Positions 14,978 through 43,866 of a stretch of 64,000 nucleotides of DNA are shown here, piece after piece. The DNA comes from Acidobacteriota bacterium (GTDB lineage: Bacteria; Acidobacteriota; UBA6911; RPQK01; JAJDTT01): NCBI GenBank assembly GCA_963668095.1, contig OY764083.1, positions 1,201,085-1,265,084 of the forward strand, written 5' to 3'. The notes under the pieces were generated by a model. The model saw only the letters and a program-made list of their open reading frames with translations. It had not been told where the DNA came from and made no database searches. Within the stretch, counting starts at the first letter, position 1, and each line of letters begins with the position of its first letter. The position numbers and the translations under genes are program-made.

Positions 14978-16051
14978 TCAGCGTTTCCTGGGCGGAAGCC
15001 AGCGGACGACCCCCATGTGGTAGCGCCGGTGCTCATGAACTCCGTCGCTGTAGTACGCCGTCACCAACATTTCATCCGCCAGTTGCACCGTGGCGGGATA
15101 ACCGCCGTCGCCGGTTCCGTCCAGATGGACCAGGTGTTCGGGGGGGCCCCAGGTCCTGCCGTCATCGGAGCTGATGCGGTAGCCGATTCTCTTGTGGCCG
15201 GCCTCCCGGATCCCGTAAGTCAGGACCACCCGCCCGTCGTAGAGCTGCACCAGGTGAGCCGGGTGGTAGCGCGGCGACGTCAGCATTCCCCCGGGAGTCC
15301 AACTCCTGGCCTCATCTTCCGAGCTGAACAGTTCCAGGTGGCCGTCTCCACGAGTCCGGATCGCCGCCAGCCAGCGGCCGCTCCTGAGGCGGATCAGGGC
15401 CGTCTCGTTGAAATCGTCCTTGGCGATGACGGCGTTTTCCGTCCAGGTTCGTCCGTCGTCACGGCTGAAGAGCACGTAGGCGGTGGAACCGGGCGGGTTA
15501 TTGGGCAGTTTCCAGGAGTAGCCGGGAGCGACCAGGACGTTCCCTGGAGCCTGGACGATGTCGCCAAAGGGGATGAGGTTTTGCACTCCCTCGGGCAGGG
15601 TGACGCCGGAACTCTGCTCCCAGGTCCTCCCACCGTCGCTGGAGCGGCAGACCAGAGATGGCAGAATCCGCTCCCGAAAGCCGGCACCGCCCCAGCCGGA
15701 AGCCAGCACCACCACCGACCCGTCGTGGGCCGCGCCGGCGGCCACGTTCATGCGGTTCGAGCCGTCCTTGCGGGGAGCCACGACACCTCCCAGTTCCCAC
15801 ATCCGGCCTCCGTCCGTGCTGACCCACGACTCCACGTCTCCCTCTCCCAGGCCGTGATGGGGCTGGTTGAAGATGGTGGCGGTCAGGGTGCCGTCCTTGA
15901 GCAGCGTCAGGTTGGGCCAGGCGCAGACGTTGTCCACGGCCACGTACCGCTCCAGAGGCTCGGCCGGCAGAAGGGCGGCCATGCTACCGGCCAGGATGCA
16001 GATCAGGGGAATTCGGCTCACGATGGACCTCGCTATCGTTTGAATGATCAT
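14978..16051 (-). CDS. BNR/Asp-box repeat sialidase-like glycoside hydrolase
   Basis: Four Asp-box motifs (STDGGRMW, SRDDGRTW, SEDEARSW, SSDDGRTW) and an N-terminal signal anchor. Confidence 0.75.
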   Translation of the reverse strand: MIIQTIARSIVSRIPLICILAGSMAALLPAEPLERYVAVDNVCAWPNLTLLKDGTLTATIFNQPHHGLGEGDVESWVSTDGGRMWELGGVVAPRKDGSNRMNVAAGAAHDGSVVVLASGWGGAGFRERILPSLVCRSSDGGRTWEQSSGVTLPEGVQNLIPFGDIVQAPGNVLVAPGYSWKLPNNPPGSTAYVLFSRDDGRTWTENAVIAKDDFNETALIRLRSGRWLAAIRTRGDGHLELFSSEDEARSWTPGGMLTSPRYHPAHLVQLYDGRVVLTYGIREAGHKRIGYRISSDDGRTWGPPEHLVHLDGTGDGGYPATVQLADEMLVTAYYSDGVHEHRRYHMGVVRWLPPRKR

Positions 16052-16108
16052 TGATTGAAATCGAACCCGTCTGACGGCGGATTCAAGGATATGCGCCCGA
16101 CACTGGTG

Positions 16109-17248
16109 TCATTGATAGGCGATGTTGCCGTCGGGGTCGACGACCAGGGGCCGACGCCAGCGCTTGAGGGGGTTCCCGGCGAAGGCCTTCTCGTTGAGTT
16201 CGATTCCCAGGCCCGGATCCTGCGGCAGTTCCAGGTAGCCGCCCACCCGCTTCATGGGCTCCAGCACCAGGTTGCGCATGGGACCCTGGCTGTCGTCCCG
16301 GTATTCCAGAATGATGAAGTTGGGCGTCGAGGCGGCAAAATGGGTCGACACGGCCGTGGAGACGGGGCCCAGCGGGCTGTGCGGAGCGATGGTCAGGTAT
16401 TCGGCCTCTGCCATGGCGGCGATCTTCTTGGACTCCATGAGCCCGCCGCACAGCACCAGGTCCGGTTGCAGAATATCGGCGGCTTCGGCCGCGATCACGT
16501 CCCGGAACTCGTACTTGGTGTAAAGCATCTCGCCCGTGGCGATGGGAACCGGGATCTTCCGGTGCAGCCTCCCCATGGCCTCGATGTTCTCGGGCCGGAG
16601 CGGCTCTTCGAAGAACATGGGGCTATAGGGCTCGACCGCTTGGGCCATCTGAAGCGCCCGGACCGGCTCGAAGATGCGGGCGTGGGGATCCAGCCCCACG
16701 TCCATGTCGTCGCCCACCGCCTTGCGCACCGCCGCCAGCCTCGCCGCCGTCCCCCGGAGCACCCGGTCCCAGGGCAGCTTCTCGGCGTTGGGCGGGTGCG
16801 GGGCCATCTTGACGGCAGTGAACCCCAGATCCTGAGCCCGCTTGGCCGAGTCGGCCACCTCACGGGGAGTGCTCCCGCTGACTCCCAGGTAGACCCGGAC
16901 CCGATCCCGGCAGCGACCGCCGATCAATTCATAGACGGGAACTCCCAGGGCCTTGCCCTTGAGGTCCCAACAGGCGATCTCGATGCCGCTGATCGCGGCA
17001 TTCAAAATGGAGCCGCCCGGGAACCGGGATCCGTTGTAGAGGAGCCGCCAGATATACTCGATCCGAGTCGGGTCCTGTCCCAGGATCCAGTCCTTGAAAT
17101 AGTGAACCGCTTCCTCCACCGCATGGTCCGGACCCACGCGGTAGGCTTCGCCGATCCCGTGCAGATGCTCGTCGGTGAGGATCTTGACGAAGACGTGGTT
17201 GCCGTCTCCCAGGTTCACGCCGAAGGTCTGGACATCGATGATTTTCAT
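16109..17248 (-). CDS. enolase superfamily sugar-acid dehydratase (mandelate racemase / galactonate-mannonate dehydratase family)
   Basis: MKIIDVQTF... N-terminus, conserved IACWDLKGKALGVPVYELIGG and metal-ligand regions typical of the MR/MLE family. Length 379 aa. Confidence 0.85.
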   Translation of the reverse strand: MKIIDVQTFGVNLGDGNHVFVKILTDEHLHGIGEAYRVGPDHAVEEAVHYFKDWILGQDPTRIEYIWRLLYNGSRFPGGSILNAAISGIEIACWDLKGKALGVPVYELIGGRCRDRVRVYLGVSGSTPREVADSAKRAQDLGFTAVKMAPHPPNAEKLPWDRVLRGTAARLAAVRKAVGDDMDVGLDPHARIFEPVRALQMAQAVEPYSPMFFEEPLRPENIEAMGRLHRKIPVPIATGEMLYTKYEFRDVIAAEAADILQPDLVLCGGLMESKKIAAMAEAEYLTIAPHSPLGPVSTAVSTHFAASTPNFIILEYRDDSQGPMRNLVLEPMKRVGGYLELPQDPGLGIELNEKAFAGNPLKRWRRPLVVDPDGNIAYQ

Positions 17249-17687
17249 GGTCTTCCTCGACTACCGGAAACAGATTCTCGGCGGGGAATTGTACATCATA
17301 TATTCCAAGGCCCGTTGAATCAGGGAAAGTCTGTCCGATTGAGATCGCGGTTTCATGCTATCGCAGCCCGTTGGAAAATGTCCGAGGCTGCGCGGCAGTT
17401 TCTCCGTCGTCAGGCACATCTTCCGTTGCCCCCTCCGGACGTTTGTTCCCCCATCGCCACAGCACAATTTTTCATCACCGGACCGACTCCCCCGGACTCT
17501 TGACACAGGCGGATAGGGAGCGCGGTAAAAACACTCGACAAATACAAATATTTGGTTTTTTGCCTTTTTTCGGCTCTTGGAAATTCAGTTTTTTGGATAC
17601 AGTGGGCTGATCGCGGGTGCTGCTCAGTTGAAATAAGTAAAGTAATGACTCCACTTAGCAAGCGTCTTGAGTAAAGTGGCACCATTC

Positions 17688-17716
17688 TTGCTACGGTTAC
17701 TGGCAATTATTAATAT
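17688..17716 (+). promoter_or_regulatory. sigma70-like promoter candidate (TTGCTA-17 nt-TAATAT) overlapping a palindrome, upstream of the TonB-receptor gene
   Basis: TTGCTA at 17688-17693 and TAATAT at 17711-17716 with a 17-nt spacer, inside a locally AT-rich intergenic island. The imperfect palindrome TTACTGGCAATTATTAATATTGCTAGTAA spans ~17697-17725. Confidence 0.3.
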
Positions 17717-18009
17717 TGCTAGTAACCTAGCAACTTCTTTTCCAACAGCCCGTGGTAAAAGTCGGCACGGCATTCGGCCGGGGTTGCATCCCGGCGCACT
17801 CCATTAGCTCCTTGATCGCATACGGTCGAGTATGCTGCCTCGTCGCGCCTCGTCCGGCCGGTGCAGCCCCCGTCTTGGTGCTACGCGGGACTATCACCAC
17901 AGACTGCAAAAACACGGCAATAATCGGCTCGTTGTCTGACTGAGTCTGTCAGGAGTGTGATTCTGCCGTCTGGGCGGACAATCCAATCCGCCAAAGGGAG
18001 GACGCAACG

Positions 18010-21000
18010 ATGTGGACCGCAAATCACAGGACCGTGATCGCAATCTGTGTATTTTGCCTGATGGGTGCCGGCTCGGCGTTGTTGGCTCAGGGACACCGGG
18101 CCATTATCTCGGGCCTAGTGGTCGACGCGAGTGGCGCCAGTGTCCCGGGAGCCGAGGTGAGGGTCATCCATCAATCCACCAACATTGCCCACAATACGAT
18201 TACCAGCGACAGCGGTTACTATGAGGCTCCGGGACTGCTGCCCGGCCAGTACCGGATTGAGGCCGCACTCGAGGGTTTCAAGACCACCGTGGTCGAGGAC
18301 ATACCCGTCGCCAGCAACGAGCGGGTGCGGGTTGACCTCAGTCTCGACGTAGGGGAGGTCGAAGACAGCGTGACTGTGACCTCCGATCCCACGCTTCTCC
18401 AGTCGGCGGATGCCGATCTGGGCGTCGCCTTTGGGCAGAAGCCGCTGACTTCCCTGCCCATCGGCCAGGGAAACCCCACTTATCTGTTCCTGCTTTCACC
18501 CTCGGCCGACTCGGCTGCAGGGTACGGCAACTTCAGTATGAACCAGGAGCCCTACCAGCGGGCTGGATCCGGTCTGGTCCGGTTCAACGGAATGCCGACG
18601 GGAACTGCCGAGTTCACGATGGACGGAACTCCCAACACGCAGCGGAACAACGCTGTCGACGGGGGCGCCGTTTCATTTAATGCGACCACGGAACTGGTGA
18701 AGGAAGTGCGCATCCAAACCACGACCTTCGATGCCAGTGTGGGGCATACCGGCAGCACCACCGTTGACGTCATCATGAAAACGGGCACCAATGACTATCA
18801 CGGTGAGGCCTTTTACTTCGGGCGCCATGACATGTTCAACGCGAACAGTTGGGTCCGTAACAGGGCGGGACAGGAGAGAAGCAGTTTTCCCTACAAGCGC
18901 TTCGGTTTTACCGGAGGAGGTCCGGTTTTCAAGGACAAGACCTTCTTTTTTCTGGGCTGGACCCATTGGGAACAGGTCAGGTTCGGTGATTCTCAGGCCA
19001 CCGTACCCAGCGCGGCAAACAAGTCCGGCGACTTTTCGGGCCTGCTGGCACTGGGCCCCGAGTATCAGCTCTACGACCCGATGACCGCGGTTCTGAACGA
19101 GGCGGGGCGAGTCGAGCGCCAACCCTTCCCCAACAACATCATTCCATCGAGTCGCATCCACCCGATTGCGGCACCCCTCCTCGGGTTCTTCCTGGCTCCC
19201 AACAATCCGAGTGGGGCGAGTCCGGACGGCTTTCGCAACTATCTTTACGACAAAGGCTATACCCCGCTTCCCAGAACGGACCGGCACACGGTTCTTCGAA
19301 TCGACCATGACTTGAACGAATCGCACACATTATTCGGCAGGTATCTCAATTCAGACGGTCCTTCCAGCGGGTGGACCATGTTTGACAACCACCCCGGAGG
19401 TCCGGGCTGCGAGTGCGTCGACGTGCACGGTACGCGACACCAGATTTGGAATTTCTCGGTCGGCGACGTCTGGACCATCAACCCGACTTTCGTGGCCGAC
19501 TTTCGCGCCACCAACAATCGGCATACCTCAAAGGCCCGGAACAACGCGGGCGGACTGAGCTGGGCGGATCTCCCCACCAACATGTCCCAGTTTGTTGATG
19601 TCGAGTTTACGGGTTTTCCCTATGTTTCAATCACCGGTTACCCCAAACTGAGTAACCTTCCCGGTGGCCACAACGGGTTTACCAATTTCGATCCGGGCCT
19701 GCAGGTCGATGAGATTCGAAGCGCCTCCGCCCACTTCACCCAGATTTCGGGGAACCACAGTTTCAGGTTCGGGGCCGACTGGAGGGGCTATGTCTACAAC
19801 TCGGTTCGAAGCGATCAAGCCCGAACTTTCTTCACGGGTCAATTTTCCAGTGGTCCCTTCGACAACTCCCCGTCCCCCCCGCGGGGCCACGGTCTGGCAG
19901 ACTTCCTGCTGGGCCTCCATTCCTCCACCAACCGGAACGTACGTGCGGATTATGCGAATTATTCCACCTATACAGGCATCTATCTCCAAGACGACTGGAA
20001 AGTCACACCCAGACTCACCTTGAACCTCGGGCTCCGGTGGGAGCGCGAAGGTCCCCCCACCGAGATGCATGACCAGGCACTGACACGATGGGCGGCCGAC
20101 GTGGAGAATCCTGTCTCGGCAGCGGTCCAGGCAAATTATGCCAAGAACCCGATTCAGGAAATCCCGGCGGATCAGTTTCGGCTGATGGGAGGCGTGCTCT
20201 TTGCCGGAGTTGATGGAGAACCCCGCACCGTCTACGACTCTGACAACAACAACTTTTCTCCGCGGACCGGCGCGGCCTACCGCTTGAACGACAACACGGT
20301 CCTGAAAGGCGGCTACTCGCGTACTTTCATCCCCCTCAACCAGCGTCACTTCGCTGCCCGTTTTCCGATTGCCGGATTCGACACGAGCACATTCGCCTTT
20401 TCCAGCACCGACGGAGGCTTGACCTTTCCAGGCTCTCTGGACGATCTCTTCCCGGGTGGCTTGAACCAACCCAGGGGGTCCAGCGATGGACTGATGACCA
20501 ATCTGGGCCAGCTCATCTGGATGAACCACGGGCTCGATCGAAGTACCACAAACCCCTATGCTCACCAGTTTCAGTTGGGCATCCAGCGCAGATTGTCGCC
20601 CAACGCCACCCTGGAAGTGCGCTATGTGGGGAACCGGACGAGGGACTTCGGCATTTCCAACAACGACCATAACCGGCTGCCGGGGCAGTACTTGACCAGA
20701 TCGATAGAGCGGGACCAGGCCCATATCGACTACCTGACGGAGCGGGTCCCGAATCCGTTCCAGGGAGTCGAGGGTGTGGGTGGCTCTCTGGGAGTGGCGT
20801 CGACCATCCAACGCCAGGCTTTGCTGCGACCCTATCCCCATATTACCGGGCTTCGCTCGTGGGCCGACAAGGTAGGCTCGACCGACTACGATGCCATGCA
20901 GGTAGAATTCCGGGCCCAGGACCTTGGGGGCTGGGACGTTCAGAGCAGTTACACCTGGGGTAAGACCATGGAGGAGCTGCAGTTTCTCAATGGTTTCGGA

Positions 21001-21576
21001 ATTGACCCGGGGCCGGAAAGGACGATCGGCATCAACGACCGTCCCCATGTCCTTCGCTTTGCGGGCACCTTCAGCTTCCCCTTCGGCAAGGGCCAGCGTT
21101 TTGGACCAAAGTCGGGCCTTGCCAGTCACCTGATCAGTGGGTGGAGTGCAACCTTCATTGGGTTCGCGCAGAGTGGAATCCCCATGAAATGGGGGAATAT
21201 TATTTTCCGGGGCAACATCAGGAACATCTCGGTTGGCCAGCATGAGGCGACCCGAATGTTCAACCAGAATGCCGGTTTTGAGAGGAGCTCCGCCAAACAG
21301 CCCGCCTACAATCTGCGCACCTTTCCCCTTCGTCTTTCCGGGGTCCGGGATCAGGCGCCCACGGACGTGGGTTTGACTCTTGTCAAGAACACTTACATCG
21401 GCGAGCGGTTTCAGGCCCAGTTTCGGTTGGAAGCCTACAATCTCCTCAATTCGCACTACTTCTGGGGCGCCCACCGCAACGCGGTCAATACGAACCCCAC
21501 GAGCAGCGGGTTTGGGACGCAAGGCTTCTCCTCGGGTCCGCGAATCGTCCAGTTTGGCGTGAAGTTCATTTTCTGA
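18010..21576 (+). CDS. TonB-dependent receptor-like outer-membrane protein with N-terminal carboxypeptidase-regulatory-like domain
   Basis: Signal peptide. The CarboxypepD_reg-like start (ISGLVVDASGASVPGAEVRVIHQSTNIAHNTITSDSGYYEAPGLLPGQYRIEA) and a ~1000-aa beta-rich body ending in a C-terminal aromatic residue (…GVKFIF) are typical of this family in Acidobacteria. Confidence 0.8.
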   Translation: MWTANHRTVIAICVFCLMGAGSALLAQGHRAIISGLVVDASGASVPGAEVRVIHQSTNIAHNTITSDSGYYEAPGLLPGQYRIEAALEGFKTTVVEDIPVASNERVRVDLSLDVGEVEDSVTVTSDPTLLQSADADLGVAFGQKPLTSLPIGQGNPTYLFLLSPSADSAAGYGNFSMNQEPYQRAGSGLVRFNGMPTGTAEFTMDGTPNTQRNNAVDGGAVSFNATTELVKEVRIQTTTFDASVGHTGSTTVDVIMKTGTNDYHGEAFYFGRHDMFNANSWVRNRAGQERSSFPYKRFGFTGGGPVFKDKTFFFLGWTHWEQVRFGDSQATVPSAANKSGDFSGLLALGPEYQLYDPMTAVLNEAGRVERQPFPNNIIPSSRIHPIAAPLLGFFLAPNNPSGASPDGFRNYLYDKGYTPLPRTDRHTVLRIDHDLNESHTLFGRYLNSDGPSSGWTMFDNHPGGPGCECVDVHGTRHQIWNFSVGDVWTINPTFVADFRATNNRHTSKARNNAGGLSWADLPTNMSQFVDVEFTGFPYVSITGYPKLSNLPGGHNGFTNFDPGLQVDEIRSASAHFTQISGNHSFRFGADWRGYVYNSVRSDQARTFFTGQFSSGPFDNSPSPPRGHGLADFLLGLHSSTNRNVRADYANYSTYTGIYLQDDWKVTPRLTLNLGLRWEREGPPTEMHDQALTRWAADVENPVSAAVQANYAKNPIQEIPADQFRLMGGVLFAGVDGEPRTVYDSDNNNFSPRTGAAYRLNDNTVLKGGYSRTFIPLNQRHFAARFPIAGFDTSTFAFSSTDGGLTFPGSLDDLFPGGLNQPRGSSDGLMTNLGQLIWMNHGLDRSTTNPYAHQFQLGIQRRLSPNATLEVRYVGNRTRDFGISNNDHNRLPGQYLTRSIERDQAHIDYLTERVPNPFQGVEGVGGSLGVASTIQRQALLRPYPHITGLRSWADKVGSTDYDAMQVEFRAQDLGGWDVQSSYTWGKTMEELQFLNGFGIDPGPERTIGINDRPHVLRFAGTFSFPFGKGQRFGPKSGLASHLISGWSATFIGFAQSGIPMKWGNIIFRGNIRNISVGQHEATRMFNQNAGFERSSAKQPAYNLRTFPLRLSGVRDQAPTDVGLTLVKNTYIGERFQAQFRLEAYNLLNSHYFWGAHRNAVNTNPTSSGFGTQGFSSGPRIVQFGVKFIF

Positions 21577-21609
21577 ACCGGGATCACAAGATTGTAACTG
21601 GCAAGACAA

Positions 21610-21645
21610 AAGCCGGCTATCAAATTTGACGGCCGGCTTTTTTGG
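21610..21645 (+). terminator. rho-independent terminator
   Basis: AGCCGGC…GCCGGCT stem followed by a TTTTTT tract, immediately after the receptor stop codon. Confidence 0.5.
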
Positions 21646-21736
21646 TGCGCCCAGCCGGGCCCGCTTCTGCGATTGAAGGACGGACGCGGGCCCTGCCTAC
21701 CCAGAGCCCGTACCTTGGATTGGAAGGAGACTTGGA

Positions 21737-23413
21737 ATGCGAACAATAGGGTTTGTCCTGCTGGCCATGCTGACGGGTCAGACGGCCCTGCCTGCCCAGA
21801 GCAACCCTCTGGACGTCTCCAGCCGAAGGCAGGTGTTCATCGACGAGCGTTTCCTGGAGGTTTCCGATGGCGTCGAGCTGGTCGTTCACCAGCCGACCAA
21901 GACGAACGAACTCACGATTGCGCCGGAACACCCCTGGGAAACCGTAATTTCCGGCTCCTCCACCGTCATCAAGGCAGGGGATGTCTACCACCTCTGGTAC
22001 AGCGCCAGGGCTCCCAAGAAGAGGGATCCCGACACCGGCGAACCGATGTGGAACAAAGGGAGGTTTCAGAGTCTGGCTTATGCACGCTCGCAGGACGGGA
22101 TTCACTGGGAAAAGCCCATGCTGGGTCTGGCTGAGATCTTCGGAAGCAAGGAGAACAACATCGTTCTTGGCTACGGTGCCGGAGGCGTCAAAGAGGGACT
22201 CATTGGCACCACTGTGTTTCTGGACCCCAACGCAGTTGCCGAAGAGAGATTTCGCCAGTTGGCTTACGTCAGAAACCCCCCTGCGCTCCCCGCTTCCGCC
22301 CTGCACCTGTTTTCTTCCCCAGACGGAATCCACTGGAGCCTCACCCGCAAATCCGTCATCGTTTTCGAGTCGAAAAAGCACCACCTGGATTCCCCAAATG
22401 TGATCTTTTGGGATGATCGCATCCACAAATATGCGGCCTACATCCGGCGAAATCTGCGTCCTCCCGGATCCCAGGGCAGGGCCGTGGCCCGCAGCGAATC
22501 GGACCATCTCGAACGGTTCATGAATGCCGAAGTCACGCCTGTCGTACTGGCTGTCGATCACTTGGATCCCCACCACTACGATTCGAGGGAAGACCGTAAT
22601 GTCCAGGTCATGGATTTGTATACGAACGCCACTGTGAAGTATCCCTGGGCCCAGGACGCCTACTACATGTTCCCCTCGGCCTATTACCACTACCACAGCC
22701 GGTTCCTCCGCGAATTCGAAAACGATCCGGTCTACGATTTCGAATCTTTCTGGGACAAGAAAGGAGAGACCATGCCTCGGGAAGGTCAGACGGCTGCCAA
22801 CACGGGACCACTGGACATCCGGTTCGCAGCAAGCCGGGATGGAATCGACTGGCACCGGTATGACCGCCGCGCCTTTGTGGACCTGGGCATGAAAGGCGAA
22901 TTCGATTCAAAGTCCAACTACATGATTCTCGGCCTGGTTCCCGCTCTCAACGGGCGCGAGATGTACATGTACTACAGCGGCAGCGATCAGATCCATGCCT
23001 GGGGCTTTCAGCCTCAGAGCGAAGCGGTTCGAAGGGAGGGGCTGGGTCCCATTCGGAATATTCGAGCCCTCAGCCGGCTGGTTCTGCGGAGGGACGGGTT
23101 TATCTCCGTTCGAGCATCGTACCCGGGAGGGGGGTTTACCACCCCCGTCCTGAAATTCGAGGGTCGGGAGCTGGTCTTGAACGTCGACACCTCAGCCTTG
23201 GGCACGCTGAGGGTAGAAATACTGGACGAGTTCGACAATCCCCTGGAAGGTTTTCGATTGGGGGACTGCGACCGCATTCACACCACCAACGAGCTGAACC
23301 GGATTGTCACCTGGCACCGGCAGTCGGACGTGAGTCGTCTCGCCGGGAAGCCGGTCAAACTCCGGTTCGTCATGAATGACACCGACTTGTACGCCTTCCA
23401 GTTCAGACGGTGA
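21737..23413 (+). CDS. secreted Asp-box beta-propeller protein, paralog family member 1 (putative glycosidase-like)
   Basis: Signal peptide. Shares conserved blocks with three other genes in the window: RRQVFIDERFLE, SQDGIHWEKP, SPDGIHWS, and a C-terminal …LRFVMNDTDLYAFQF. An AGGAG-like RBS precedes the ATG. Confidence 0.6.
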   Translation: MRTIGFVLLAMLTGQTALPAQSNPLDVSSRRQVFIDERFLEVSDGVELVVHQPTKTNELTIAPEHPWETVISGSSTVIKAGDVYHLWYSARAPKKRDPDTGEPMWNKGRFQSLAYARSQDGIHWEKPMLGLAEIFGSKENNIVLGYGAGGVKEGLIGTTVFLDPNAVAEERFRQLAYVRNPPALPASALHLFSSPDGIHWSLTRKSVIVFESKKHHLDSPNVIFWDDRIHKYAAYIRRNLRPPGSQGRAVARSESDHLERFMNAEVTPVVLAVDHLDPHHYDSREDRNVQVMDLYTNATVKYPWAQDAYYMFPSAYYHYHSRFLREFENDPVYDFESFWDKKGETMPREGQTAANTGPLDIRFAASRDGIDWHRYDRRAFVDLGMKGEFDSKSNYMILGLVPALNGREMYMYYSGSDQIHAWGFQPQSEAVRREGLGPIRNIRALSRLVLRRDGFISVRASYPGGGFTTPVLKFEGRELVLNVDTSALGTLRVEILDEFDNPLEGFRLGDCDRIHTTNELNRIVTWHRQSDVSRLAGKPVKLRFVMNDTDLYAFQFRR

Positions 23414-35568: not shown

Positions 35569-35865
35569 GGGATCCTCATCAGACCGTCGAGACGGCCGCC
35601 TGACCCGAATTTCTCAACGGAACGATAGATAAAGACCGGGTTCTGTGCTATAAGTGTATTTAAGAGAACCACTTACGGCACCAACAGGTCTCGCAGGCCC
35701 CGCGCCCATCTCGTGGGGCAACGACCGTTTCCGCTTTCTCGCAGCCGTTCTGGTCTTTTCGATGGGAACTGAAGTCAATATAACAATAATACCATCAATA
35801 TATTGCATTGCAGTATTCCTGGCCGCGCTGTCCGGGAGGGAACAGGCTGCCAAGAGGAGGATCAA

Positions 35866-38592
35866 ATGGACAGGAACCTGACATTTTCCAGGCCGAAGGT
35901 CTGCTGCCTATTGCTCCTCACCATTCCGGCTCTCCTACACGTATGTTCTCCCCTTCTCGCCGGCCCCAGCAGGCTGTTGCTTCGAGAGTTCGATCGGGCC
36001 ATCAGCAGGTGGGTGGTCCGAGACGGCGAGGGGATCCGCTACCTCCTGACGGCCAGGAGGGGACCCGAGGGACGGGCCGGCTTCGCCCTTCGAATCTCAA
36101 AAAACACCCGACCTCGATCCCTGGAGGATTTTCTTCCCCCGGTCGACCTCGTCCCTCCCCGGAGCGCCCGTGAATCGATCGAATGCGCCGGCATGGCCCT
36201 GGATGGCGCCGGCCGTCTGCATTTCGTCTGGAGCACTAAAAAGGGCCATTCCGGTTACAGCTTGATGAGCCTGGATCGACTCAAGAGGCGTCCGGAGGCC
36301 GGAGAGGAGCCACTCTGGGTGAATCCAGCCGACGGGACGCGGGGAGCGCTGATTCTGGCTGAGGCGGCTTCGCTCGTGGGTGACGTCAGGCAGGCGCCCA
36401 ACGGAGACGTCTGGCTGGCATGGACGGCCGGGACGGGCAACGACGTCTCCCTGCATCTAGGGACCGTAAGGGGCGGAAAATGGCAATCCTTCGAAGTCGC
36501 CGCCGGAGACAGCCACGCTCCACCCGCTCTCCTCATTGACGGCGGCGGGCGCTTTCACCTGGCGTGGCACAACCGCGAAGGGCGTGGTTTCTATCTCAGC
36601 AAAGAGCCTTCGGATCTGCAAGAGACGCTCAAAGGGTCTGCTCTTGAAACCCGGGCCTCCTCTTCCCTGCCCGCCGGACCCTGGAGGCTCTGGGCCTATC
36701 GGCCGGCCCTGGTGGAGACACCCGCCGGAATACTGGCTGTCCATGAGTCCGGAACGTCGGAGTTGAGATCCGTGTTCCCAGGGGGCGAAAAAAAGAAAAA
36801 CTTTCCGCTTACCGGTGAGGACGAAAGGTTCGCGTGGGATTTCTGTCACTCGCCCCGGTTTGCCGTCGACCGCTACGGCATCCCCTGGGTTTTCTTCATC
36901 AACGGCACCCGCCAGCACGTGTTTTACGCCCGCTGGCTGGAAAAGCAGTGGAGTCCGATCTTGAACGCCTACTGGCTCACGCTCAATACGCCCAGAATGG
37001 ATGAAAATCATCTCTCCATCGACCGGTTGGCGGTGGAGGAGAGAATGTCCGGGGATGCTGAGGGGATCGGCGTCTCCATCACCCACGAAAGCCGGTTTCC
37101 CCAGACGGCCTATCACACGATGCCGGTCCCGTCTCTGACAGCCACTCCCGGAACCACCGTCTTGTTTTTGGACCTGAAGGAGTTGAAAGCACTGGACGGT
37201 CTGCAACTGAAGGTCAACGAGGCCGTGAAATACCAGGGAAACCCGGTGATCGCGAGGGGAACCGCCGGGGATTTCGATGCCGGCGGGGCCTCACAATTGG
37301 GCGTCCTGAAAGAGAATGGCGTGTACCGCATGTGGTATTCTGGGGTCTTCCGCGAACCCGGGTCCAAGTGGCCCGAGTCGGGCCCCGTGCCCATGCGCCG
37401 AATCGGTTATGCGGAGAGCAGGGACGGTTACCACTTCAGGAAAGTCGATCTGGGGATGGTTCCCTTTGGAGGCCGGGAGCGTACGAATCTGGTTCCGGGA
37501 CTTCCCCCCGCTCCGGTTTACAAGCCCATCTTCGCGGGGGGCATCCATCGTGACGCCCATGAGGCGGACCCGGCGAAAAGGTACAAACTGCTGAAGTGGG
37601 ACCGGGATCCCGTCGAAGATTCGAATGCGCCGCACCTGCCGGAGAGACAGCGCTGGACCCTGTTCACTTCACCTGACGGAATCCGGTGGAGGGAGCAGGT
37701 GGCAGGGAACATTTCCTTTCCTGCCGGCCAGCCCGGTTCTTTCGTGCCCATGTCGCTTTTTTTCGATGGGGCGGAAAAGGATCCGGGAAAGAGGTACAAG
37801 GCTTACGGTTTTACTTCTCTGAACATCAGCCGCCGCGGGGGAGCCTACGGCTACAGCCCGGATGCCGTTCACTGGACGGGGCATCCACAGAACCCCATTT
37901 TTGACCCCTTTGCCCGAAGCATACCCGTCGTGAGAAGCGGCAAGGTGGAACAGATCCATGATGCGGTGGTGTGGAAGCGCCACGGCTACTACCTGGCCCT
38001 CTATCAATACCAGCACAGCAGTACGAACATGGATGTGGAACTGGCCGCGAGCCGTGACGGAGAGTACTTCGCATTCATCCAACCCGGCGAGAAGGTGATC
38101 ACTCGCGGCGCTCCGGACGCCTGGGACTCGGACATGGTCGCACCGTCCGTGCCCCTGGTGGATGGCGAAGATATCAAGTTGTACTACGGAGGCTGGCGCA
38201 GTTCGCCCTGGGCGGAAGGACAGCCCTCAGGGGGCGTGGCTACGCTGAGACTCGACGGCTTTACCCATCTGGAGTTGGTGAAGGACCGGGCTCGAGGGAG
38301 TCTCACCACCATTCCCATCGGTCCCGGCGCGGCTTCTGAACTCTATGTGAACGCCGACTGCAGCGAGGGCGGCTTCCTGCAGGTCGAGCTGATCGATCCC
38401 GCCACCGGACGGCCCCTGCCGGGGTATTCCAGAGAGGAGAGTCCCCGGTTCGAGGGGGACTCGTTGGCTTGGAGAGTCGAATGGGAGCATGGAAGGGGCC
38501 TCCACGGGCTGAAGGTGGTTTCGTTCCAGATCAAGTTCCACCTGGCCGCCACCGGGGGATCCCCCAAACTCTATTCATTCAGTCTGAAGTAG
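35866..38592 (+). CDS. large secreted protein: novel N-terminal region + C-terminal beta-propeller glycosidase-like domain related to the paralog family
   Basis: AGGAGG RBS before the ATG at 35866 and a signal peptide. N-terminal half carries repeated …HFVWS/…LAWT/…HLAWH blades. C-terminal half reads NPVIARGTAGDFDAGGAS…YRMWYSG and ends …KLYSFSLK. Confidence 0.55.
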   Translation: MDRNLTFSRPKVCCLLLLTIPALLHVCSPLLAGPSRLLLREFDRAISRWVVRDGEGIRYLLTARRGPEGRAGFALRISKNTRPRSLEDFLPPVDLVPPRSARESIECAGMALDGAGRLHFVWSTKKGHSGYSLMSLDRLKRRPEAGEEPLWVNPADGTRGALILAEAASLVGDVRQAPNGDVWLAWTAGTGNDVSLHLGTVRGGKWQSFEVAAGDSHAPPALLIDGGGRFHLAWHNREGRGFYLSKEPSDLQETLKGSALETRASSSLPAGPWRLWAYRPALVETPAGILAVHESGTSELRSVFPGGEKKKNFPLTGEDERFAWDFCHSPRFAVDRYGIPWVFFINGTRQHVFYARWLEKQWSPILNAYWLTLNTPRMDENHLSIDRLAVEERMSGDAEGIGVSITHESRFPQTAYHTMPVPSLTATPGTTVLFLDLKELKALDGLQLKVNEAVKYQGNPVIARGTAGDFDAGGASQLGVLKENGVYRMWYSGVFREPGSKWPESGPVPMRRIGYAESRDGYHFRKVDLGMVPFGGRERTNLVPGLPPAPVYKPIFAGGIHRDAHEADPAKRYKLLKWDRDPVEDSNAPHLPERQRWTLFTSPDGIRWREQVAGNISFPAGQPGSFVPMSLFFDGAEKDPGKRYKAYGFTSLNISRRGGAYGYSPDAVHWTGHPQNPIFDPFARSIPVVRSGKVEQIHDAVVWKRHGYYLALYQYQHSSTNMDVELAASRDGEYFAFIQPGEKVITRGAPDAWDSDMVAPSVPLVDGEDIKLYYGGWRSSPWAEGQPSGGVATLRLDGFTHLELVKDRARGSLTTIPIGPGAASELYVNADCSEGGFLQVELIDPATGRPLPGYSREESPRFEGDSLAWRVEWEHGRGLHGLKVVSFQIKFHLAATGGSPKLYSFSLK

Positions 38593-38605: not shown

Positions 38606-40276
38606 GTGTCTTCAGGGTTCTTGTATAATCAGGATGTGAACCCGCCCATTCTTTCTTTTGAAAGAATTCTCCGTCGATTGCTGATTGCTCTTCTCCTGTC
38701 TTGTCTGCCGAAGGTTCCGATCCTGGCTGGAGCCCAGGAGAACAAGTCCAGGAAGTCCCCGCCTCAAGCCCAGCTCAAAGAGGAAGCGGAAGACTACTTT
38801 CAACGCTGGTTGGAGCAGGACGTCGTCTACGTGATCTCCAAGGCAGAACGCGCAGTCTTCGAGAGTCTGACCGCCCCGGAAGAAAAGGAACAGTTCATCG
38901 AACAGTTCTGGTTTCAAAGAGATCCGGATCCGCGCAGTGCCGCCAACGAGTTCAAGGAGGAACACTATCGCCGGATCGCCTATGCCAATGAGAGATTCGC
39001 CAGCGGCTTTCCCGGATGGATGAATGATCGAGGCCGCATCTACATCATTCACGGGCCACCCGACGAGATCGAAGCGCACCCTTCCGGCGGGAGGTATGAG
39101 CGGCCCCTTGAAGAGGGAGGAGGAACGACCGTAGCTCATCCGTTCGAAGTCTGGAGGTACCGCTTCGTAGAAGGCCTTGGCTCCGATGTCATCCTGGAGT
39201 TCGTAGACCCTTCTTGGAGTGGGGAATACAGGCTCGCCCTCAACCCCGACGAGAAGGATGCCCTGCTCAATGTGGCCGGCGCAGGCAATACGATCGCTGA
39301 AATGATTCAGCGCGACGAATCCCTGGAAGGGACGACCTTCACGTCGCCCGGAAACGCCAATCTCCGAAGCTTTCGAGCCCGGGACACCGCCTTCGACCGC
39401 TATGAAACGTTTACTAAAATCCGGCACGCCAAGCCCCTCAAGCATCGTGATCTGAAACGCCTCGTGGAGATCGACGTCACCTACCAGGACCTTCCCTTTT
39501 CTCACCGGGTCGATTATTTCGGCCTCGACGAGACGCGCTCACTCGTACCCGTAAGTGTCGAAATCCACGATCGTGAACTCACCTTCGGTGAGGAAGAGCA
39601 TGGAAGGCGGGCCCGCATGGCGGTCTATGGAATCGTAACCAATTTGTCGAATCGGATTGTGGACGAATTCGAAGCGGATCTGGTGAGCGATTATCGAGCC
39701 CGGACCGCCCGCTCCGTCTATCAAAAGGTTTTGGTGCTGGAACGAAAGGGCCGCTACAAGCTGGACCTGATCATCAAGGATCTCATCAGTGGGCGTGTGG
39801 GTGTACGCCGTCTGGTATTGATTCCACCGCCTCACCGGTCCGAGCTATCAGTCAGCTCGATTCTGCTCTCGAATCGAATCACACGACTGGAGAGTGCCCC
39901 GGAGCGCCATGCGATGTTCGTTCTGGGGGACTTTCACATCCGACCGAGCTTGGACAAAGTCTTCCGGCCCTCAGAAAATCTCAACTTTTATCTCCAAGTG
40001 TACAACGTTGCCCTGGATCAGACCGCAATGAGGCCCTCGCTGAGGGTCGCGTACCGGGTGGCAAAAGATGGACACCCGGTCGCGCAGTTCATCGACATCA
40101 TGGGTAGGTCGATACAATATCTCTCCGAGCAGAGAATCGTGCTGGTCCTGCCCATCTCCCTTCAGAGCTTTGAGCCGGGAAGCTATGAGATCACAGTGAC
40201 GGTGAAGGATCTGATCCAGGAAAGAGAGGTTCGAGCCTCCGAGGCCTTTGACGTGGCAGCAGAGGCCGCCGGCTGA
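38606..40276 (+). CDS. GWxTD domain-containing protein
   Basis: FWFQRDPDPRSAANEFKEEHYRRIAYANERFASGFPGWMNDRGRIYIIHGPPDEI matches the GWxTD domain consensus. N-terminal signal peptide. Confidence 0.7.
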   Translation: MSSGFLYNQDVNPPILSFERILRRLLIALLLSCLPKVPILAGAQENKSRKSPPQAQLKEEAEDYFQRWLEQDVVYVISKAERAVFESLTAPEEKEQFIEQFWFQRDPDPRSAANEFKEEHYRRIAYANERFASGFPGWMNDRGRIYIIHGPPDEIEAHPSGGRYERPLEEGGGTTVAHPFEVWRYRFVEGLGSDVILEFVDPSWSGEYRLALNPDEKDALLNVAGAGNTIAEMIQRDESLEGTTFTSPGNANLRSFRARDTAFDRYETFTKIRHAKPLKHRDLKRLVEIDVTYQDLPFSHRVDYFGLDETRSLVPVSVEIHDRELTFGEEEHGRRARMAVYGIVTNLSNRIVDEFEADLVSDYRARTARSVYQKVLVLERKGRYKLDLIIKDLISGRVGVRRLVLIPPPHRSELSVSSILLSNRITRLESAPERHAMFVLGDFHIRPSLDKVFRPSENLNFYLQVYNVALDQTAMRPSLRVAYRVAKDGHPVAQFIDIMGRSIQYLSEQRIVLVLPISLQSFEPGSYEITVTVKDLIQEREVRASEAFDVAAEAAG

Positions 40277-40421
40277 GAGGCCTCCCGGATCCGTTCTTAA
40301 GCCAGTCCCTTGCCTGACCCGACTGAATAATCAAGGACGGCCCGATTCCTGAGCTACTTTCACGGTCAGGACGACTTCCGGATGACTTCCACTTCTACGC
40401 ATCCGCTCGATGAGTCTCTCT

Positions 40422-41432
40422 TCAACCCACCAACTCCGCCACCCCGATTCCAGCAAAGCGATTGCCGTCATAGAACATGTAGGTATGTTCCGCAGAGTGC
40501 CAAATGCAAGGGTAGCAGGTCATTTCGCTGTCCCAGCCCGACTCGCTGACCTCGAGAACCGGTTCGGGCCACCACTTCCACCGTATTCCGTCCGGGCTCT
40601 CGGCGTAGTGAACGCGGTAGAGACGGCGCTGGTCTTCGACGACGCTGAACCACATTCGAAAGCCGTTCCGGGTCTTCTCCACGAAGGGCTTGGAACAGGT
40701 TGAAAAGTAGGAGTCAAGCCGGGGCGGAATACTGATCAGCGCCCCCGCGGGATGTGGCCTGAAAGTATGGCCCCCGTCGTTCGAAACGGCGAGGGCAATG
40801 GAAATCTTGCTGTGCGTCTCAGGCCAGCGCACGACGGCCGTATACCACATCCAATACTGCGAACCGACCTTCAGGACGGCGCAGGAACCAGTGCCGTGCT
40901 CGTCGCAGGAAAAGGGCCTTCCCAATTCCAACAGGGCCCGGCCGCTGCGTTTCCAGGTCAGGCCGGCGTCGTCGCTCTCGGCCAAAGTGGTCCGATAGGC
41001 TTTGAACCTGCCGAAGGGGTGATAGTCTCCGCCCCAGCCACAGTAATACAGGTGCCAGTGTTTCTCGGTGACGGGCACCACCCAGGGATAACTCACCCAG
41101 TGGGAATCGATCGACCCGGGCGCACCGAAGTCCAAAAGCGGCTGGTTCGAAGCTTTCCTCCAACTCAAGGGATCGGAAATGTCAGCTTCCGCAAGGCCGA
41201 TTCGCCTCCGCTGATCCTCGATGCTCATGTAGTACATTCGCAGTTGATCGCCGGACTGGACGACGTGAGGAGCGGACGGGCGCCGGTCCCAGCCACCTTC
41301 ATCTCCGTCGGGAAAAATGAGCTTCAGTTTCCTCCACCTCTGGCCCTGAAAGTGGGTTGACAGACTCATCCCGGTCCTCGCCCCCAGCAGAGGCGGCAAC
41401 GTCGTTGCATAGAGGAACTTACGCCGGTTCAT
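40422..41432 (-). CDS. TAT-secreted beta-propeller glycosidase-like protein (Asp-box containing)
   Basis: MNRRKFLYATTLPPLLGA TAT signal. Asp-box-like SNDGGHTF, SPDGIRWK and ESDDAGLTWK, with repeated W/Y-rich blades. Start taken at the ATG for MNRRKF (41432); ORF maximum is 41483. Confidence 0.55.
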   Translation of the reverse strand: MNRRKFLYATTLPPLLGARTGMSLSTHFQGQRWRKLKLIFPDGDEGGWDRRPSAPHVVQSGDQLRMYYMSIEDQRRRIGLAEADISDPLSWRKASNQPLLDFGAPGSIDSHWVSYPWVVPVTEKHWHLYYCGWGGDYHPFGRFKAYRTTLAESDDAGLTWKRSGRALLELGRPFSCDEHGTGSCAVLKVGSQYWMWYTAVVRWPETHSKISIALAVSNDGGHTFRPHPAGALISIPPRLDSYFSTCSKPFVEKTRNGFRMWFSVVEDQRRLYRVHYAESPDGIRWKWWPEPVLEVSESGWDSEMTCYPCIWHSAEHTYMFYDGNRFAGIGVAELVG

Positions 41433-41730
41433 GTCGATTATTGGTGACCTCCATCGCCTCGATCCCCTTCCTTGCTTCCGCAAGCCGCCGCTGAGCCTCG
41501 GGGGCAGCGCACGCCCCCGAATTTCTCACCCAATCCCTGAGTGTCTGAAGAAAACGTCAGTTTTTTCAGGCACTTACGGCTATTTGGCGGCAGCTCCCCG
41601 GCGACAGCCAGCACTGGGCGCACCCTCGCCGGTCTTTTCGCCCTCAGCGTGCACGTGCTCGCTCGAACGTAGCAGCCGCCGAGGAGGAAAATCCTGCGCG
41701 ATCATCGCGCCCACTGGTGAGAGATTCGGA

Positions 41731-42285
41731 CTACAGCTTCCGGATGGAGTCGCCGACGCGGACCTGTCCGGCCTCCACTACGAAGACGTAGCATCCGCGC
41801 AGACGGAGGTCCTTCGTACCGGGTCCGTTGACGAATTTCAGGGCGTCGACGCCGTAACGGCTCGAGAATTTCTTGCAGCCCGTGTGCGGCAACTCCGAGA
41901 CCTCCACCAACGCCTCGCCGATCCGGAACCGGGTGCCGACGGGGAGATTCTCAGCGGTGAGGTTCATATCCACCGCCAGATTGTCTCCCGACAGGGACCA
42001 GCGATCGCGGCTTCCGGCGATCAGGGAGAGCAGGCGCGAGTTGATGAGGGTCAACTGCACCTTGGGATCGGAGCTGCCGTCGGGAAGCTTGCGCCAGCAG
42101 GTCTCTTGCCAGCGGTCCCCCTCCAAGCCGCCCTCGGGTGAGAGCCGGGCCTCGTTTTTGGACTTCCGGACGTTGGTGGCCGGACAGGCGGTGATGGCCT
42201 CCACCCGTCCTTCATGGCGGGGAGAAGCCAGAATGGAATCCAGCGCCTCCTCCAGTTGGTCCAGAGAGATGAATCGTTGCGTCAT
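41731..42285 (-). CDS. MOSC domain-containing protein
   Basis: FRIGEALVEVSELPHTGCKKF…LRLRGCYVFVVEAGQVRVGDSI matches the MOSC beta-barrel with its conserved Cys. ORF maximum is 42306. Confidence 0.7.
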   Translation of the reverse strand: MTQRFISLDQLEEALDSILASPRHEGRVEAITACPATNVRKSKNEARLSPEGGLEGDRWQETCWRKLPDGSSDPKVQLTLINSRLLSLIAGSRDRWSLSGDNLAVDMNLTAENLPVGTRFRIGEALVEVSELPHTGCKKFSSRYGVDALKFVNGPGTKDLRLRGCYVFVVEAGQVRVGDSIRKL

Positions 42286-42357
42286 CGATTTCCTCCGCTC
42301 CGCCACCGACCGGTTCAGGTCCGCCCGGAAAGGGCTGAATGCAGTGCCAAGGCGGCG

Positions 42358-43866
42358 TTATTGGATCTGGAAGGAGTAGAGCCGGGCGCGGCTGTAGACG
42401 AACTTCAGCCGGACCGGACCCGTCACACTACTCAGGTCGCCCCCTTCCCAACTCACCGTCCGGTAGACGCCCTCTTCCTCGCTCAACTTCGAATCCGCGG
42501 CGGCGTATCCCGGAATCGTTTGGCCGTTCCGGTCCTGCAGCTCGACCCGCAGGTAGCCATTGTTGTCCGGATCGTCGTTGAAGATGTCCTTCCACGGCGC
42601 GTCCGCTCCCCCCTTGCCCCCGGACAGCAATTCCACGTTGACTCTCAGGGTGCTCCCCTCGAAGCGGAGCGGGTGCGTGGTGACATGACCCTCGGCGGTG
42701 GCGTCCAGGGCGGCCCAGCCGTCCTGCCGGATCTTCATCAATCCGATCTGTCCCTTGTGTTCGGCCGCGGGGGCATTGTGGAGATTGTCGAACCCGGAGT
42801 AGTAGATCCAGACCTCTCCGTCGTGGACCACGGGCGTCGAGATGGGGAACACCATCCCGCTGTCGAAGCTGCTTCCGCCGTAGCCGTTGACCTGGTAGCC
42901 CAGGACGATGAAGGGCCGGCGGTAAACGGACCGCTCCCAGTTCACGCCGTCCCGGCTCGAAGCCAACTGGGCGTCCATGGTCTGGATGTCGGTATGGAAG
43001 ACCCAGATCAACCCCAGATAGTGAGAGCCGTAGGGAAAGGCCGAGACTCCGTAGAACTCGGTGTGGGGCGGGTCGAACTCGTCCGGCTCCAGGACGAAGC
43101 GGCTGTCGCGCCAATGGATGAAATCGTCGCTCACCAGCCGCGAGACCTTGCGCGGTCCGCCGGGACTGGTCTTGTGGTAGAGCCAGTACTGTTTCGTCCC
43201 GGGATCCCGCATCAGGCCGAAGGTGTCGCCGCTGCCCCAGATGGGCACCACCGGATTCTTCTCGTAATCGGTCCAATTCAGACCGTCGGGCGAGAAGGCG
43301 ACCCAGATGCCGTGCCGAGGCCGGTCATGGTGCTGCCAGTAGGCCATTTTGTAACGGCGGTTGGGGTCGGGGTCGTCGGGCTCCTTGAGGACCACGTGGT
43401 TCCAACTGACCCAATCGAGGACGATGTTGTTGGCCTTGGAACCGCGGAACTCCACGATGCCCAGCTCGGGCTTCTCCCAGTGGATCCCGTCCTTGGAGGT
43501 GGCGTAGCAGAGGAATTCGCGAACGTCGGTGTTCCTCGATTTGCCGAAGGTGTTGTACCACAGCTTGAAGACCTGCTCTTCTTCGTCGTAGATCGCGCTT
43601 CCCGGCTGCAGCACCAGGTAGCCTTCCCAGGGACGGTCCGGCTTGATGATGGGGTTTTCGGCGACTTTCCGGGGCCGGGTGTTATAGGCCCCGGTCAGGG
43701 AGCGCCAGACCCGGTCGCTGTCGGCGATCAGGTGGTCGTCCACGAAGAGCTGCACCCTGGAGTCGATCTCCCGAACCGGGTTCGGCTCGGCCGATGAACC
43801 TGGCTGGCACGACGGTAGCAGGAGCAAGGTAAGCCCCAAGAGCAGCAAACGCTGGGGATTCCGCAT
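42358..43866 (-). CDS. secreted Asp-box beta-propeller protein, paralog family member 4 (divergent)
   Basis: Signal peptide. DSRVQLFVDDHLIADSD, SKDGIHWEKPELGIVEFRGSKANNIVLD, SPDGLNWTDYEKNPVV, C-terminal …LKFVYSRARLYSFQIQ. Confidence 0.6.
   Translation of the reverse strand: MRNPQRLLLLGLTLLLLPSCQPGSSAEPNPVREIDSRVQLFVDDHLIADSDRVWRSLTGAYNTRPRKVAENPIIKPDRPWEGYLVLQPGSAIYDEEEQVFKLWYNTFGKSRNTDVREFLCYATSKDGIHWEKPELGIVEFRGSKANNIVLDWVSWNHVVLKEPDDPDPNRRYKMAYWQHHDRPRHGIWVAFSPDGLNWTDYEKNPVVPIWGSGDTFGLMRDPGTKQYWLYHKTSPGGPRKVSRLVSDDFIHWRDSRFVLEPDEFDPPHTEFYGVSAFPYGSHYLGLIWVFHTDIQTMDAQLASSRDGVNWERSVYRRPFIVLGYQVNGYGGSSFDSGMVFPISTPVVHDGEVWIYYSGFDNLHNAPAAEHKGQIGLMKIRQDGWAALDATAEGHVTTHPLRFEGSTLRVNVELLSGGKGGADAPWKDIFNDDPDNNGYLRVELQDRNGQTIPGYAAADSKLSEEEGVYRTVSWEGGDLSSVTGPVRLKFVYSRARLYSFQIQ

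Follow-up and report, generated by a model that had tools for sequence, protein, structure and literature searches.

A probable glycan-harvesting gene cluster around an Oar-type outer-membrane transporter in a sponge-associated acidobacterium

How might a bacterium outside the Bacteroidota harvest glycans through a TonB-type outer-membrane transporter that has no SusD beside it? The question is raised by a cluster of 29 kb (14978-43866) within a 64,000-nucleotide stretch of the 5.5-Mb contig OY764083.1 (GenBank assembly GCA_963668095.1, Acidobacteriota bacterium), which we call the window and number from its first letter. A previous reading of this DNA from its letters alone (the sequence-only reading) had described the cluster as resembling a polysaccharide utilisation locus (PUL), in a non-Bacteroidetes genome and with no SusD homolog. 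Our inventory is based on a listing of open reading frames (ORFs) together with Pfam and NCBIfam scans, and export signals were read directly from the translations. Around 12 exported enzymes with sugar-enzyme folds, most of them in large uncharacterised families, surround a TonB-type outer-membrane transporter (Table 1), and the cluster probably belongs to a known general class of glycan-harvesting loci. N-terminal signals of Sec type, twin-arginine type (RRxFL) or lipobox-like type were seen on every enzyme-like protein but the dehydratase. Every gene listed earlier was recovered at its coordinates by the ORF listing, Pfam and NCBIfam, and two more were added, the gene for a 359-aa protein and a probable small gene on the minus strand. 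SusD/RagB gave no Pfam match in any ORF scanned between 14978 and 43866, as had been claimed. The transporter matches and the labels of the relatives place the host lineage in the Acidobacteriota, in association with sponges, and not in the Bacteroidota, which agrees with the earlier placement.

The transporter-like protein (1188 aa) joins a CarboxypepD_reg extension (PF13620; residues 33-112, 70.6 bits) to a large barrel that matches OMP_b-brl_4 over residues 255-1181 with 518 bits, and reaches only 19.2 bits against PF00593 (TonB_dep_Rec_b-barrel), where the cut-off is 27. PGAP labels it 'TonB-dependent receptor', and a PDB sequence search with the barrel gave no relative. Orthologs with 93-99% identity are present in eight species-level Acidobacteriota genomes and copies with 81% identity in two more; beyond these copies the matches fall to 32% identity or less, and all are from Acidobacteriota. 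One of the syntenic relatives is the metagenome-assembled genome (MAG) COS4_bin_49 (L010), which is listed as p__Acidobacteriota, with no class, from the sponge Coscinoderma matthewsi and with 61.2% GC (PMC8163846 supplement).

Six beta-propeller genes had been counted around the transporter. All six are present, and BLASTP comparison resolved them into five true paralogs (E 1e-10 to 0), namely P1, P2, P3, the C-terminal half of P4, and P5, which we call family P, and one unrelated small propeller; no copy of the family beyond P1-P5 was found in the 64-kb window. P1 and P5 are labelled hypothetical proteins by PGAP. Family P has no Pfam model: between 0 and 2 of 30 aligned members touch GH32N (GH, glycoside hydrolase family), and 29 of the 30 lie below Pfam thresholds. 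The family is large, since a profile search of 1.84 billion representatives at 50% identity returned 17,283 matches at E<=1e-3 and 3,209 at E<=1e-30. P2 is matched by more than 8,000 clusters at 90% identity, of which those listed are 64-97% identical, and beyond the close relatives every named match among those listed is from the Planctomycetota.

An AlphaFold (AF2) model of P2 (predicted local distance difference test, pLDDT, 82; predicted TM-score, pTM, 0.82) was compared with the PDB using Foldseek. GH32 invertases and inulinases, aligned along the entire model, come first among the matches (E 7e-10 to 3e-8), and GH130, GH43, GH137 and GH183 propellers are matched as well, at 9-14% identity; for the GH130 structures 7fip and 7fir the target-normalised TM-score is 0.60-0.66. 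A sequence profile search of the PDB with family P gave GH130 and GH32 as sole matches, via the first blade. The predicted architecture is thus that of GH32, a five-bladed propeller followed by a C-terminal beta-sandwich, and with GH130 the family has in common the blade-1 motifs 'WE' and 'S-x-DG-x-x-W'. It differs from GH32, GH43 and GH130 in its low identity to them, in the many twin-arginine signals and in its tandem paralog arrays in Planctomycetota. On the model, family P is a distant member of the superfamily of five-bladed propeller glycosidases and phosphorylases, and is assignable to no defined family. Among other residues, E83, D217, D225, E393, R416 and D418 are invariant in the family and kept in P1, P2, P3 and P5, which are apparently intact members, and the P4 domain departs from the family invariants (R45T, W82F, E83D, D217V, Y305Q and E393D). 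Family members elsewhere are fused to BNR_2, to Sortilin/BNR, to Laminin_G_3 (twice) and to type I dockerin (P0375, P0461, P0374, P0402, P0363). Other long members (P0362, P0366, P0367, P0373 and P0378) carry 230-800 extra residues with no Pfam match.

The 359-aa protein gave no match in Pfam or NCBIfam. It has 3,597 homologs at 66-83% identity, and those with a name are from Planctomycetota or Verrucomicrobia. The AF2 model (pLDDT 82) matched the GH38 C-terminal domain, GalM, PL26 and the YidC P1 domain in Foldseek (E ~5e-7), and the fold is predicted to be a galactose-mutarotase-like beta-supersandwich. A 504-aa gene that is convergent with the 359-aa homolog in another locus (L070) was considered as a possible member of family P and rejected.

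In the ceramidase-like protein with a laminin-type domain (ceramidase/LamG), the match to Ceramidase_alk is 29.2 bits, just below the Pfam cut-off of 32.1. A profile of its family detected the ceramidases 4wgk (E 2e-8) and 2zws (E 8e-8) in the PDB, with the THTH zinc motif aligned; only the first ~140 residues align significantly and the downstream stretches weakly. The family shows no variation at H112, H114, H233, E397 and Y427, which stand at the expected places. The protein thus appears to resemble neutral/alkaline ceramidases (4wgk, 2zws) in an N-terminal catalytic domain with THTH and invariant His, Glu and Tyr. It differs from them in that the C-terminal ceramidase domain is absent, with Laminin_G_3 at residues 559-705 instead, and in having glycan enzymes as genomic partners. 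Because of these partners, we propose that the amide it acts on may belong to an N-acylated sugar and not to ceramide. Listed relatives from beyond the clade share 65-74% identity with it; where their source is named, it lies in the Planctomycetota, apart from one Verrucomicrobiales.

The BNR_2 protein carries four S-x-D-x-G-x-x-W Asp-boxes, of the six-bladed BNR propeller class, and is placed by its sequence in the sialidase superfamily. Among solved structures, the uncharacterised Dfer_1899 (5hx0, E 9e-17) comes nearest to it, with GH33 sialidases behind (E ~1e-8). The Asp-box propeller is common to GH33 sialidases and this protein, but the FRIP motif (F/Y-R-I-P) of the arginine triad was not found in it, the sole 'RIP' being at residue 13, inside the signal peptide. 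The dehydratase aligns end to end with the galactonate dehydratase model NF010624 at 335.1 bits, above the equivalog cut-off of 311, and the CehA/McbA-type protein matches NF038032 over residues 210-531 with 203.1 bits against a cut-off of 80.

Three independent contexts (L014/L016, L094 and L006/L065, L numbers denoting homologous loci in other genomes and contigs) link the transporter type, family P, the ceramidase-like protein and BNR_2. The sister transporter, at 81% identity, lies in L014 and L016 in a wholly different neighbourhood, which again holds carbohydrate genes: an esterase, a 3-keto-disaccharide hydrolase, a 505-aa ceramidase-like gene (66 bits in L014), SSF symporters and a GH123-like gene (GH123_cat in L014, 42 bits against a cut-off of 23). 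L014 has in addition an aminotransferase, DHDPS, a PIG-L deacetylase and, 8 kb downstream of the sister transporter, a copy of P1 that is 92% identical. On an unrelated metagenome contig, L094, a P2 homolog, an Oar-type transporter of only 25% identity and an FG-GAP protein stand in a row. On planctomycete-type contigs, two P copies occur with a ceramidase-like gene, BNR_2 and a GFO_IDH_MocA oxidoreductase (L006), and P occurs with ceramidase/LamG, BNR_2, GH38, DHDPS and a sulfatase (L065); on a further contig of this type (L067), ceramidase/LamG adjoins an MR_MLE dehydratase.

Family P itself is often found in tandem arrays of up to seven copies, some of them interleaved with BNR_2 homologs that are 40-46% identical to that of the window, as in the order P, BNR_2, P in L100 and L133. 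Recurrent neighbours of the family point to sugar metabolism: sulfatases, GFO_IDH_MocA oxidoreductases, HpcH aldolases and SSF symporters. FG-GAP/UnbV_ASPIC homologs adjoin distant Oar-type transporters in L027 and L042 and lie near a partial transporter match in L038. Two side observations concern these loci. DUF1501 is the commonest neighbour of family P in the metagenome loci (8 of 84), and in L016 a Mutator-family transposase (20905-22131, 354 bits) lies ~7 kb downstream of the sister transporter; because this is about where L014 has its P1 copy, the sequence suggests that the L016 sister locus was recently rearranged.

On balance, and with modest confidence, we favour a reading of the cluster as a locus for the utilisation of a glycan or glycoconjugate, tied to a TonB-dependent transporter and without SusD. 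A set of enzymes exported via Sec, Tat or lipoprotein signals, consisting of P1, P2, P3, P5, the P4 fusion, the small propeller, BNR_2, the mutarotase-like protein, the ceramidase-like/LamG protein and, in some strains, CehA, would cut back an extracellular glycoconjugate of complex chemistry, and would probably do so on the surface of the cell or in its periplasm. The LamG domain of the ceramidase-like amidase would act as a binding module, and the many P paralogs may correspond to many linkage specificities. Glycoconjugate fragments would cross the outer membrane via the Oar-type transporter, and the released sugar acid would enter central metabolism via the cytoplasmic galactonate-type dehydratase.

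The substrate of such a locus is more likely to be an acidic or amino-sugar-rich glycoconjugate, host-derived or marine, than a plant cell-wall polysaccharide. Sponge hosts have sialylated glycoconjugates, and glycoconjugates of the host are presumed to serve sponge symbionts as food. The sequence-only reading had hinted at a glycosphingolipid or sialoglycan; the apparently intact ceramidase-type zinc site, the GH123-like, DHDPS and PIG-L genes of the sister locus and the sponge host speak for this hint, and the missing FRIP motif, the missing C-terminal ceramidase domain and the lack of any sialic-acid catabolism genes in the 64-kb window speak against it. We regard these particular substrates as speculation.

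A number of observations weigh against the utilisation locus as a whole. The strands alternate along it, with about nine alternating transcription directions across the cluster genes, and co-transcription of the locus is therefore impossible. No DNA-binding or sensor domain that would indicate a regulator was present in any locus ORF in the Pfam and NCBIfam scans, and no inner-membrane transporter is encoded inside the cluster, an MFS_1 gene (44143-45408, 35.8 bits) lying immediately outside it. A Plug domain (PF07715) was not matched in the barrel, either over the whole protein at E<=0.01 or over residues 101-267 at E<=1. P1-P4 and the small propeller are below curated glycosidase thresholds in the Pfam scans, P5 has a borderline whole-protein GH32N score of 25.3 bits with no single stretch that passes, and among family P, the 359-aa family and the ceramidase/LamG family no member has a known activity. 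The carbohydrate activity of the propellers, which had been put forward as decisive, is suggested by a predicted GH-like fold in family P and by sub-threshold GH32N and GH130 signals in the small propeller, and by no clear curated threshold.

Co-conservation in relatives, which had been put forward in the same way, turned out to be uninformative. The gene order is kept in eight close relatives (transporter 93-99% identical), but the unrelated upstream flank (M16 peptidase, GNAT, WD40) is conserved equally in the same eight; near-relative synteny therefore says nothing on function, and was rejected as evidence of selection. Four of the eight (L008, L010, L015 and L017) lack the CehA gene, which, judged by this distribution, is accessory or dispensable. 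Family P has no strong conserved partner, the best neighbour family being present in 8 of 84 loci, and its associations are loose because no partner exceeds this number. The functional unit may also be smaller than claimed, because BNR_2, the dehydratase and P5 differ in GC content at third codon positions (GC3) from the block at 18.0-41.5 kb: GC3 is 0.64-0.75 for the genes between 18010 and 41483, with one exception, and 0.76-0.86 for BNR_2 (0.82), the dehydratase, P5 (0.86) and the upstream flank. Of the PUL-like description, what stands is a transporter amid exported carbohydrate-fold proteins, together with the three independent contexts; what does not is any regulator, inner-membrane transporter, Plug, common strand or clearly passed glycosidase threshold.

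Much of this would also be expected of a patchwork, in which a compositional island of acquired, tandemly duplicating families of planctomycetal affinity has come to lie beside one of many Oar-type barrels and the genes act singly. The synteny that extends equally to an unrelated flank, the dispensable CehA gene, the alternating directions, the lower GC3 across 18.0-41.5 kb and the fact that no regulator or operator in common was found all fit such an island, as do the tandem P arrays without any transporter in many lineages (L097, L099 and L137) and the presence of an Oar-type barrel next to P in only 1 of 79 metagenome loci. Nevertheless, we hold this explanation to be rather unlikely. In a different neighbourhood, the 81% sister transporter is again accompanied by a ceramidase-like gene, by other carbohydrate genes and, in L014, by a P1 copy; L094 repeats the set of P, transporter and FG-GAP protein with a transporter that is only 25% identical; and fusions and adjacencies tie P to BNR_2 and LamG.

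It is also conceivable, although improbable in our view, that the chemistry is not that of carbohydrates and that these folds serve the processing of lipids, peptides or sponge secondary metabolites, or binding only. The identity to any glycosidase is only 9-14%, no curated family threshold is clearly met, the catalytic residues of family P cannot be mapped, the characterised relatives of the ceramidase-like and CehA-like proteins act on amide or ester bonds, and the neighbours of the 359-aa family include a penicillin amidase and an Amidase gene in L069. Against this, all fold matches are to carbohydrate-processing domains, the fused domains are Laminin_G_3, Dockerin and BNR_2, and the recurrent neighbours are sulfatases, sugar oxidoreductases, sugar-acid aldolases and dehydratases, SSF symporters, GH38 and a GH123-like protein.

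Least probable of all is that the barrel faces outward, as a TonB-dependent secretion channel like Myxococcus Oar for the neighbouring Sec/Tat-exported enzymes and not as a glycan importer, for although the CarboxypepD_reg extension and barrel are the architecture of the Oar subclass, whose one studied member is required for secretion of the protease PopC (PMC6434023), and enzymes with inner-membrane export signals only would need an outer-membrane route if extracellular, only one instance of secretion through a TonB-dependent transporter is known, the demonstrated similarity to Oar is limited to domain architecture, Plug was not identified here and yet Plug and TonB box are needed in Oar (PMC6434023), and the enzymes could equally work in the periplasm.

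Within the SusD-less utilisation locus that we favour, the enzymes and the barrel appear to differ in origin. For P2, the 359-aa protein and ceramidase/LamG, there are matches at 65-83% identity that come, where a source is named, mostly from Planctomycetota; most database matches carry no taxon name, and the reading of origin rests on the named ones. Because these relatives are planctomycetal while the distant relatives of the transporter are acidobacterial, and because of the contrast in GC3, the core formed by the three was probably acquired horizontally and set beside a barrel of native acidobacterial type. We advance a bolder proposal only tentatively, as possible rather than probable: family P would be an unrecognised family of glycoside hydrolases or phosphorylases and, with its BNR_2, 359-aa and ceramidase-like/LamG partners, would form a conserved toolkit for animal or marine glycoconjugates that is most abundant in Planctomycetota, was acquired horizontally by a sponge-symbiont acidobacterium and was there coupled to an Oar-type barrel, giving a new kind of PUL.

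The leader region of the transporter gene was searched for signs of regulation. In the AT-rich centre of the 760-bp leader lies an imperfect 13-nt inverted repeat, GGTTACTGGCAAT-N7-ATTGCTAGTAACC (17695-17727), which may be an operator. The window has a single copy of it, and only 2 of 10 relatives retain it, weakly. An operator common to the locus genes was rejected, as the palindrome occurs a single time, near-matches are at chance level (6 against 2.2 expected) and it is barely conserved. No Rfam family reached its gathering score anywhere in the window, and no riboswitch or other RNA element was found in this way.

Table 1. Genes and intergenic features of the cluster, in window coordinates.
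Feature	Coordinates	Strand	Basis and remarks
Exported BNR_2 propeller, 357 aa	14978-16051	-	Pfam BNR_2 71.6 bits; four Asp-boxes
Enolase-superfamily sugar-acid dehydratase, cytoplasmic, galactonate dehydratase type	16109-17248	-	MR_MLE_N, MR_MLE_C; NF010624
Intergenic region, 760 bp, between the divergent dehydratase and transporter genes	17249-18009		Imperfect palindrome inside
Oar-subclass TonB-dependent-transporter-like protein, 1188 aa	18010-21576	+	Signal peptide, CarboxypepD_reg extension, large barrel (OMP_b-brl_4)
P1, family-P paralog, 558 aa, Sec signal	21737-23413	+	32% identical to P2 and P3
CehA/McbA-family (PHP-type) metallohydrolase	23474-25279	-	NF038032; true start may be internal, near 25111
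Exported 359-aa protein, predicted galactose-mutarotase-like	25389-26468	+	No Pfam family; absent from the sequence-only list
P2, family-P paralog, 522 aa, twin-arginine signal	26649-28217	-	BLASTP paralogy; AF2 model
Exported ceramidase-like zinc amidase domain with C-terminal Laminin_G_3, 710 aa	28299-30431	-	Pfam; PDB profile
TPR-repeat protein	30555-32222	+	Start uncertain: homologous gene in L001 called at 489 aa
FG-GAP/UnbV_ASPIC (CRTAC1-like) exported protein	32223-33935	+	FG-GAP_3 167 bits, UnbV_ASPIC 59.8 bits; start abuts end of TPR gene
P3, family-P paralog, 533 aa, twin-arginine signal	33967-35568	-	59.5% identical to P2
P4 fusion: weakly BNR_4-like N-terminal half, then divergent family-P domain (residues ~454-929)	35803-38592	+	Pfam, BLASTP
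GWxTD-domain protein	38606-40276	+	PF20094 58 bits; TIGR04514 113.6 bits
Small exported propeller, twin-arginine-like signal, not family P	40422-41483	-	Sub-threshold GH32N, GH130, DUF4185 and BNR matches only
Possible 191-aa MOSC/YiiM-like gene	41731-42306	-	NF008577 E 0.006; PDB 5yhi and 1o65 E 0.012-0.013
P5, family-P paralog, 502 aa, lipobox-like signal (LLPSC)	42358-43866	-	26-32% identical to other paralogs

Among the smaller reading frames of the cluster, the 191-aa gene is probably a real cytoplasmic gene unrelated to the locus. An ORF on the plus strand (41431-42141), which overlaps the start of the small-propeller gene, gave no matches and was set aside as probably spurious.

Several features of the flanks were observed alongside. 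Just upstream of the locus, on the minus strand (2813-10936), lies a run of planctomycete type with DUF1501, PSCyt2/PSD1/PSD2 and a PSCyt1+WD40 protein. A BCCT betaine/carnitine/choline transporter (1075-2658), a creatinase/prolidase-type M24 peptidase (46199-47362) and two tandem Xan_ur permeases (56018-59618) are also encoded in the flanks; their functions are in the uptake and catabolism of small nitrogenous compounds, which have been discussed as nutrients derived from the host in sponges. A low-GC patch (54500-55800; 0.566 against ~0.64) holds two adjacent minus-strand ORFs with a 4-bp overlap (54613-55212, 199 aa, and 55209-55772, 187 aa). The 187-aa ORF carries a helix-turn-helix-like 'VSRTTVYAWV', a PDB sequence search with the 199-aa ORF was without match, and the arrangement (54613-55772) looks like a toxin-antitoxin pair. 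A 525-aa protein on the minus strand (48909-50486) is composed of little else than ankyrin repeats (Ank_2, 343 bits). Ankyrin-repeat proteins are a eukaryote-like class that is reported to be enriched in sponge symbionts (PMC8163846), and the protein agrees in this with a lineage of sponge origin.

Taken alone, the locus is of moderate interest. More valuable, in our opinion, are at least three very large, well-conserved and mutually associated families, each of which lacks either a Pfam model or a known activity (family P, the 359-aa family and the ceramidase-like/LamG family), which are targets for enzyme discovery. Acidobacteriota and Planctomycetota are major and poorly understood degraders of complex organic matter. 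Should family P prove to be a glycosidase family not recognised before, sense could be made of thousands of marine and soil metagenome sequences now labelled "hypothetical proteins", and if the barrel, a member of the little-studied Oar subclass, were to import glycans, it would define the uptake of polysaccharide fragments in Acidobacteriota that have no SusD.

Our literature search on Acidobacteria PULs, on Oar-type transporters in glycan uptake and on characterised members of family P found nothing relevant beyond a study of Myxococcus xanthus Oar (PMC6434023) and the sponge MAG paper (PMC8163846). The barrel of the locus is like Oar in its CarboxypepD_reg extension and very large barrel (~1,100-1,200 aa in all). 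In Oar, which exports a protease, a Plug is recognisable and a TonB box is present (PMC6434023), whereas in the barrel of the locus no Plug was detected and the neighbours are glycosidase-like. With the SusC/SusD PULs of Bacteroidota, the locus has in common an N-terminally extended, putatively TonB-dependent barrel near many secreted or lipoprotein hydrolase-like paralogs, and the logic of trimming followed by import would be alike. It differs from them in its alternating strands and its Acidobacteriota host, and in that neither SusD/RagB nor a hybrid two-component, ECF/anti-sigma or SusR-like regulator was found. Xanthomonas and other Proteobacteria reportedly have carbohydrate utilisation loci anchored by TonB-dependent transporters (CUT loci), which normally include a regulator and an inner-membrane transporter. 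Neither of these was found inside the cluster, the barrel is of the Oar subclass with no detected Plug, and most of the enzymes of the cluster belong to families with no Pfam model or known activity. A SusD-less barrel of apparent TonB type, exported enzymes of putative glycan-degrading type and a cytoplasmic sugar-catabolic enzyme are common to both, and the locus resembles proteobacterial CUT loci more than it does a Bacteroidota PUL.

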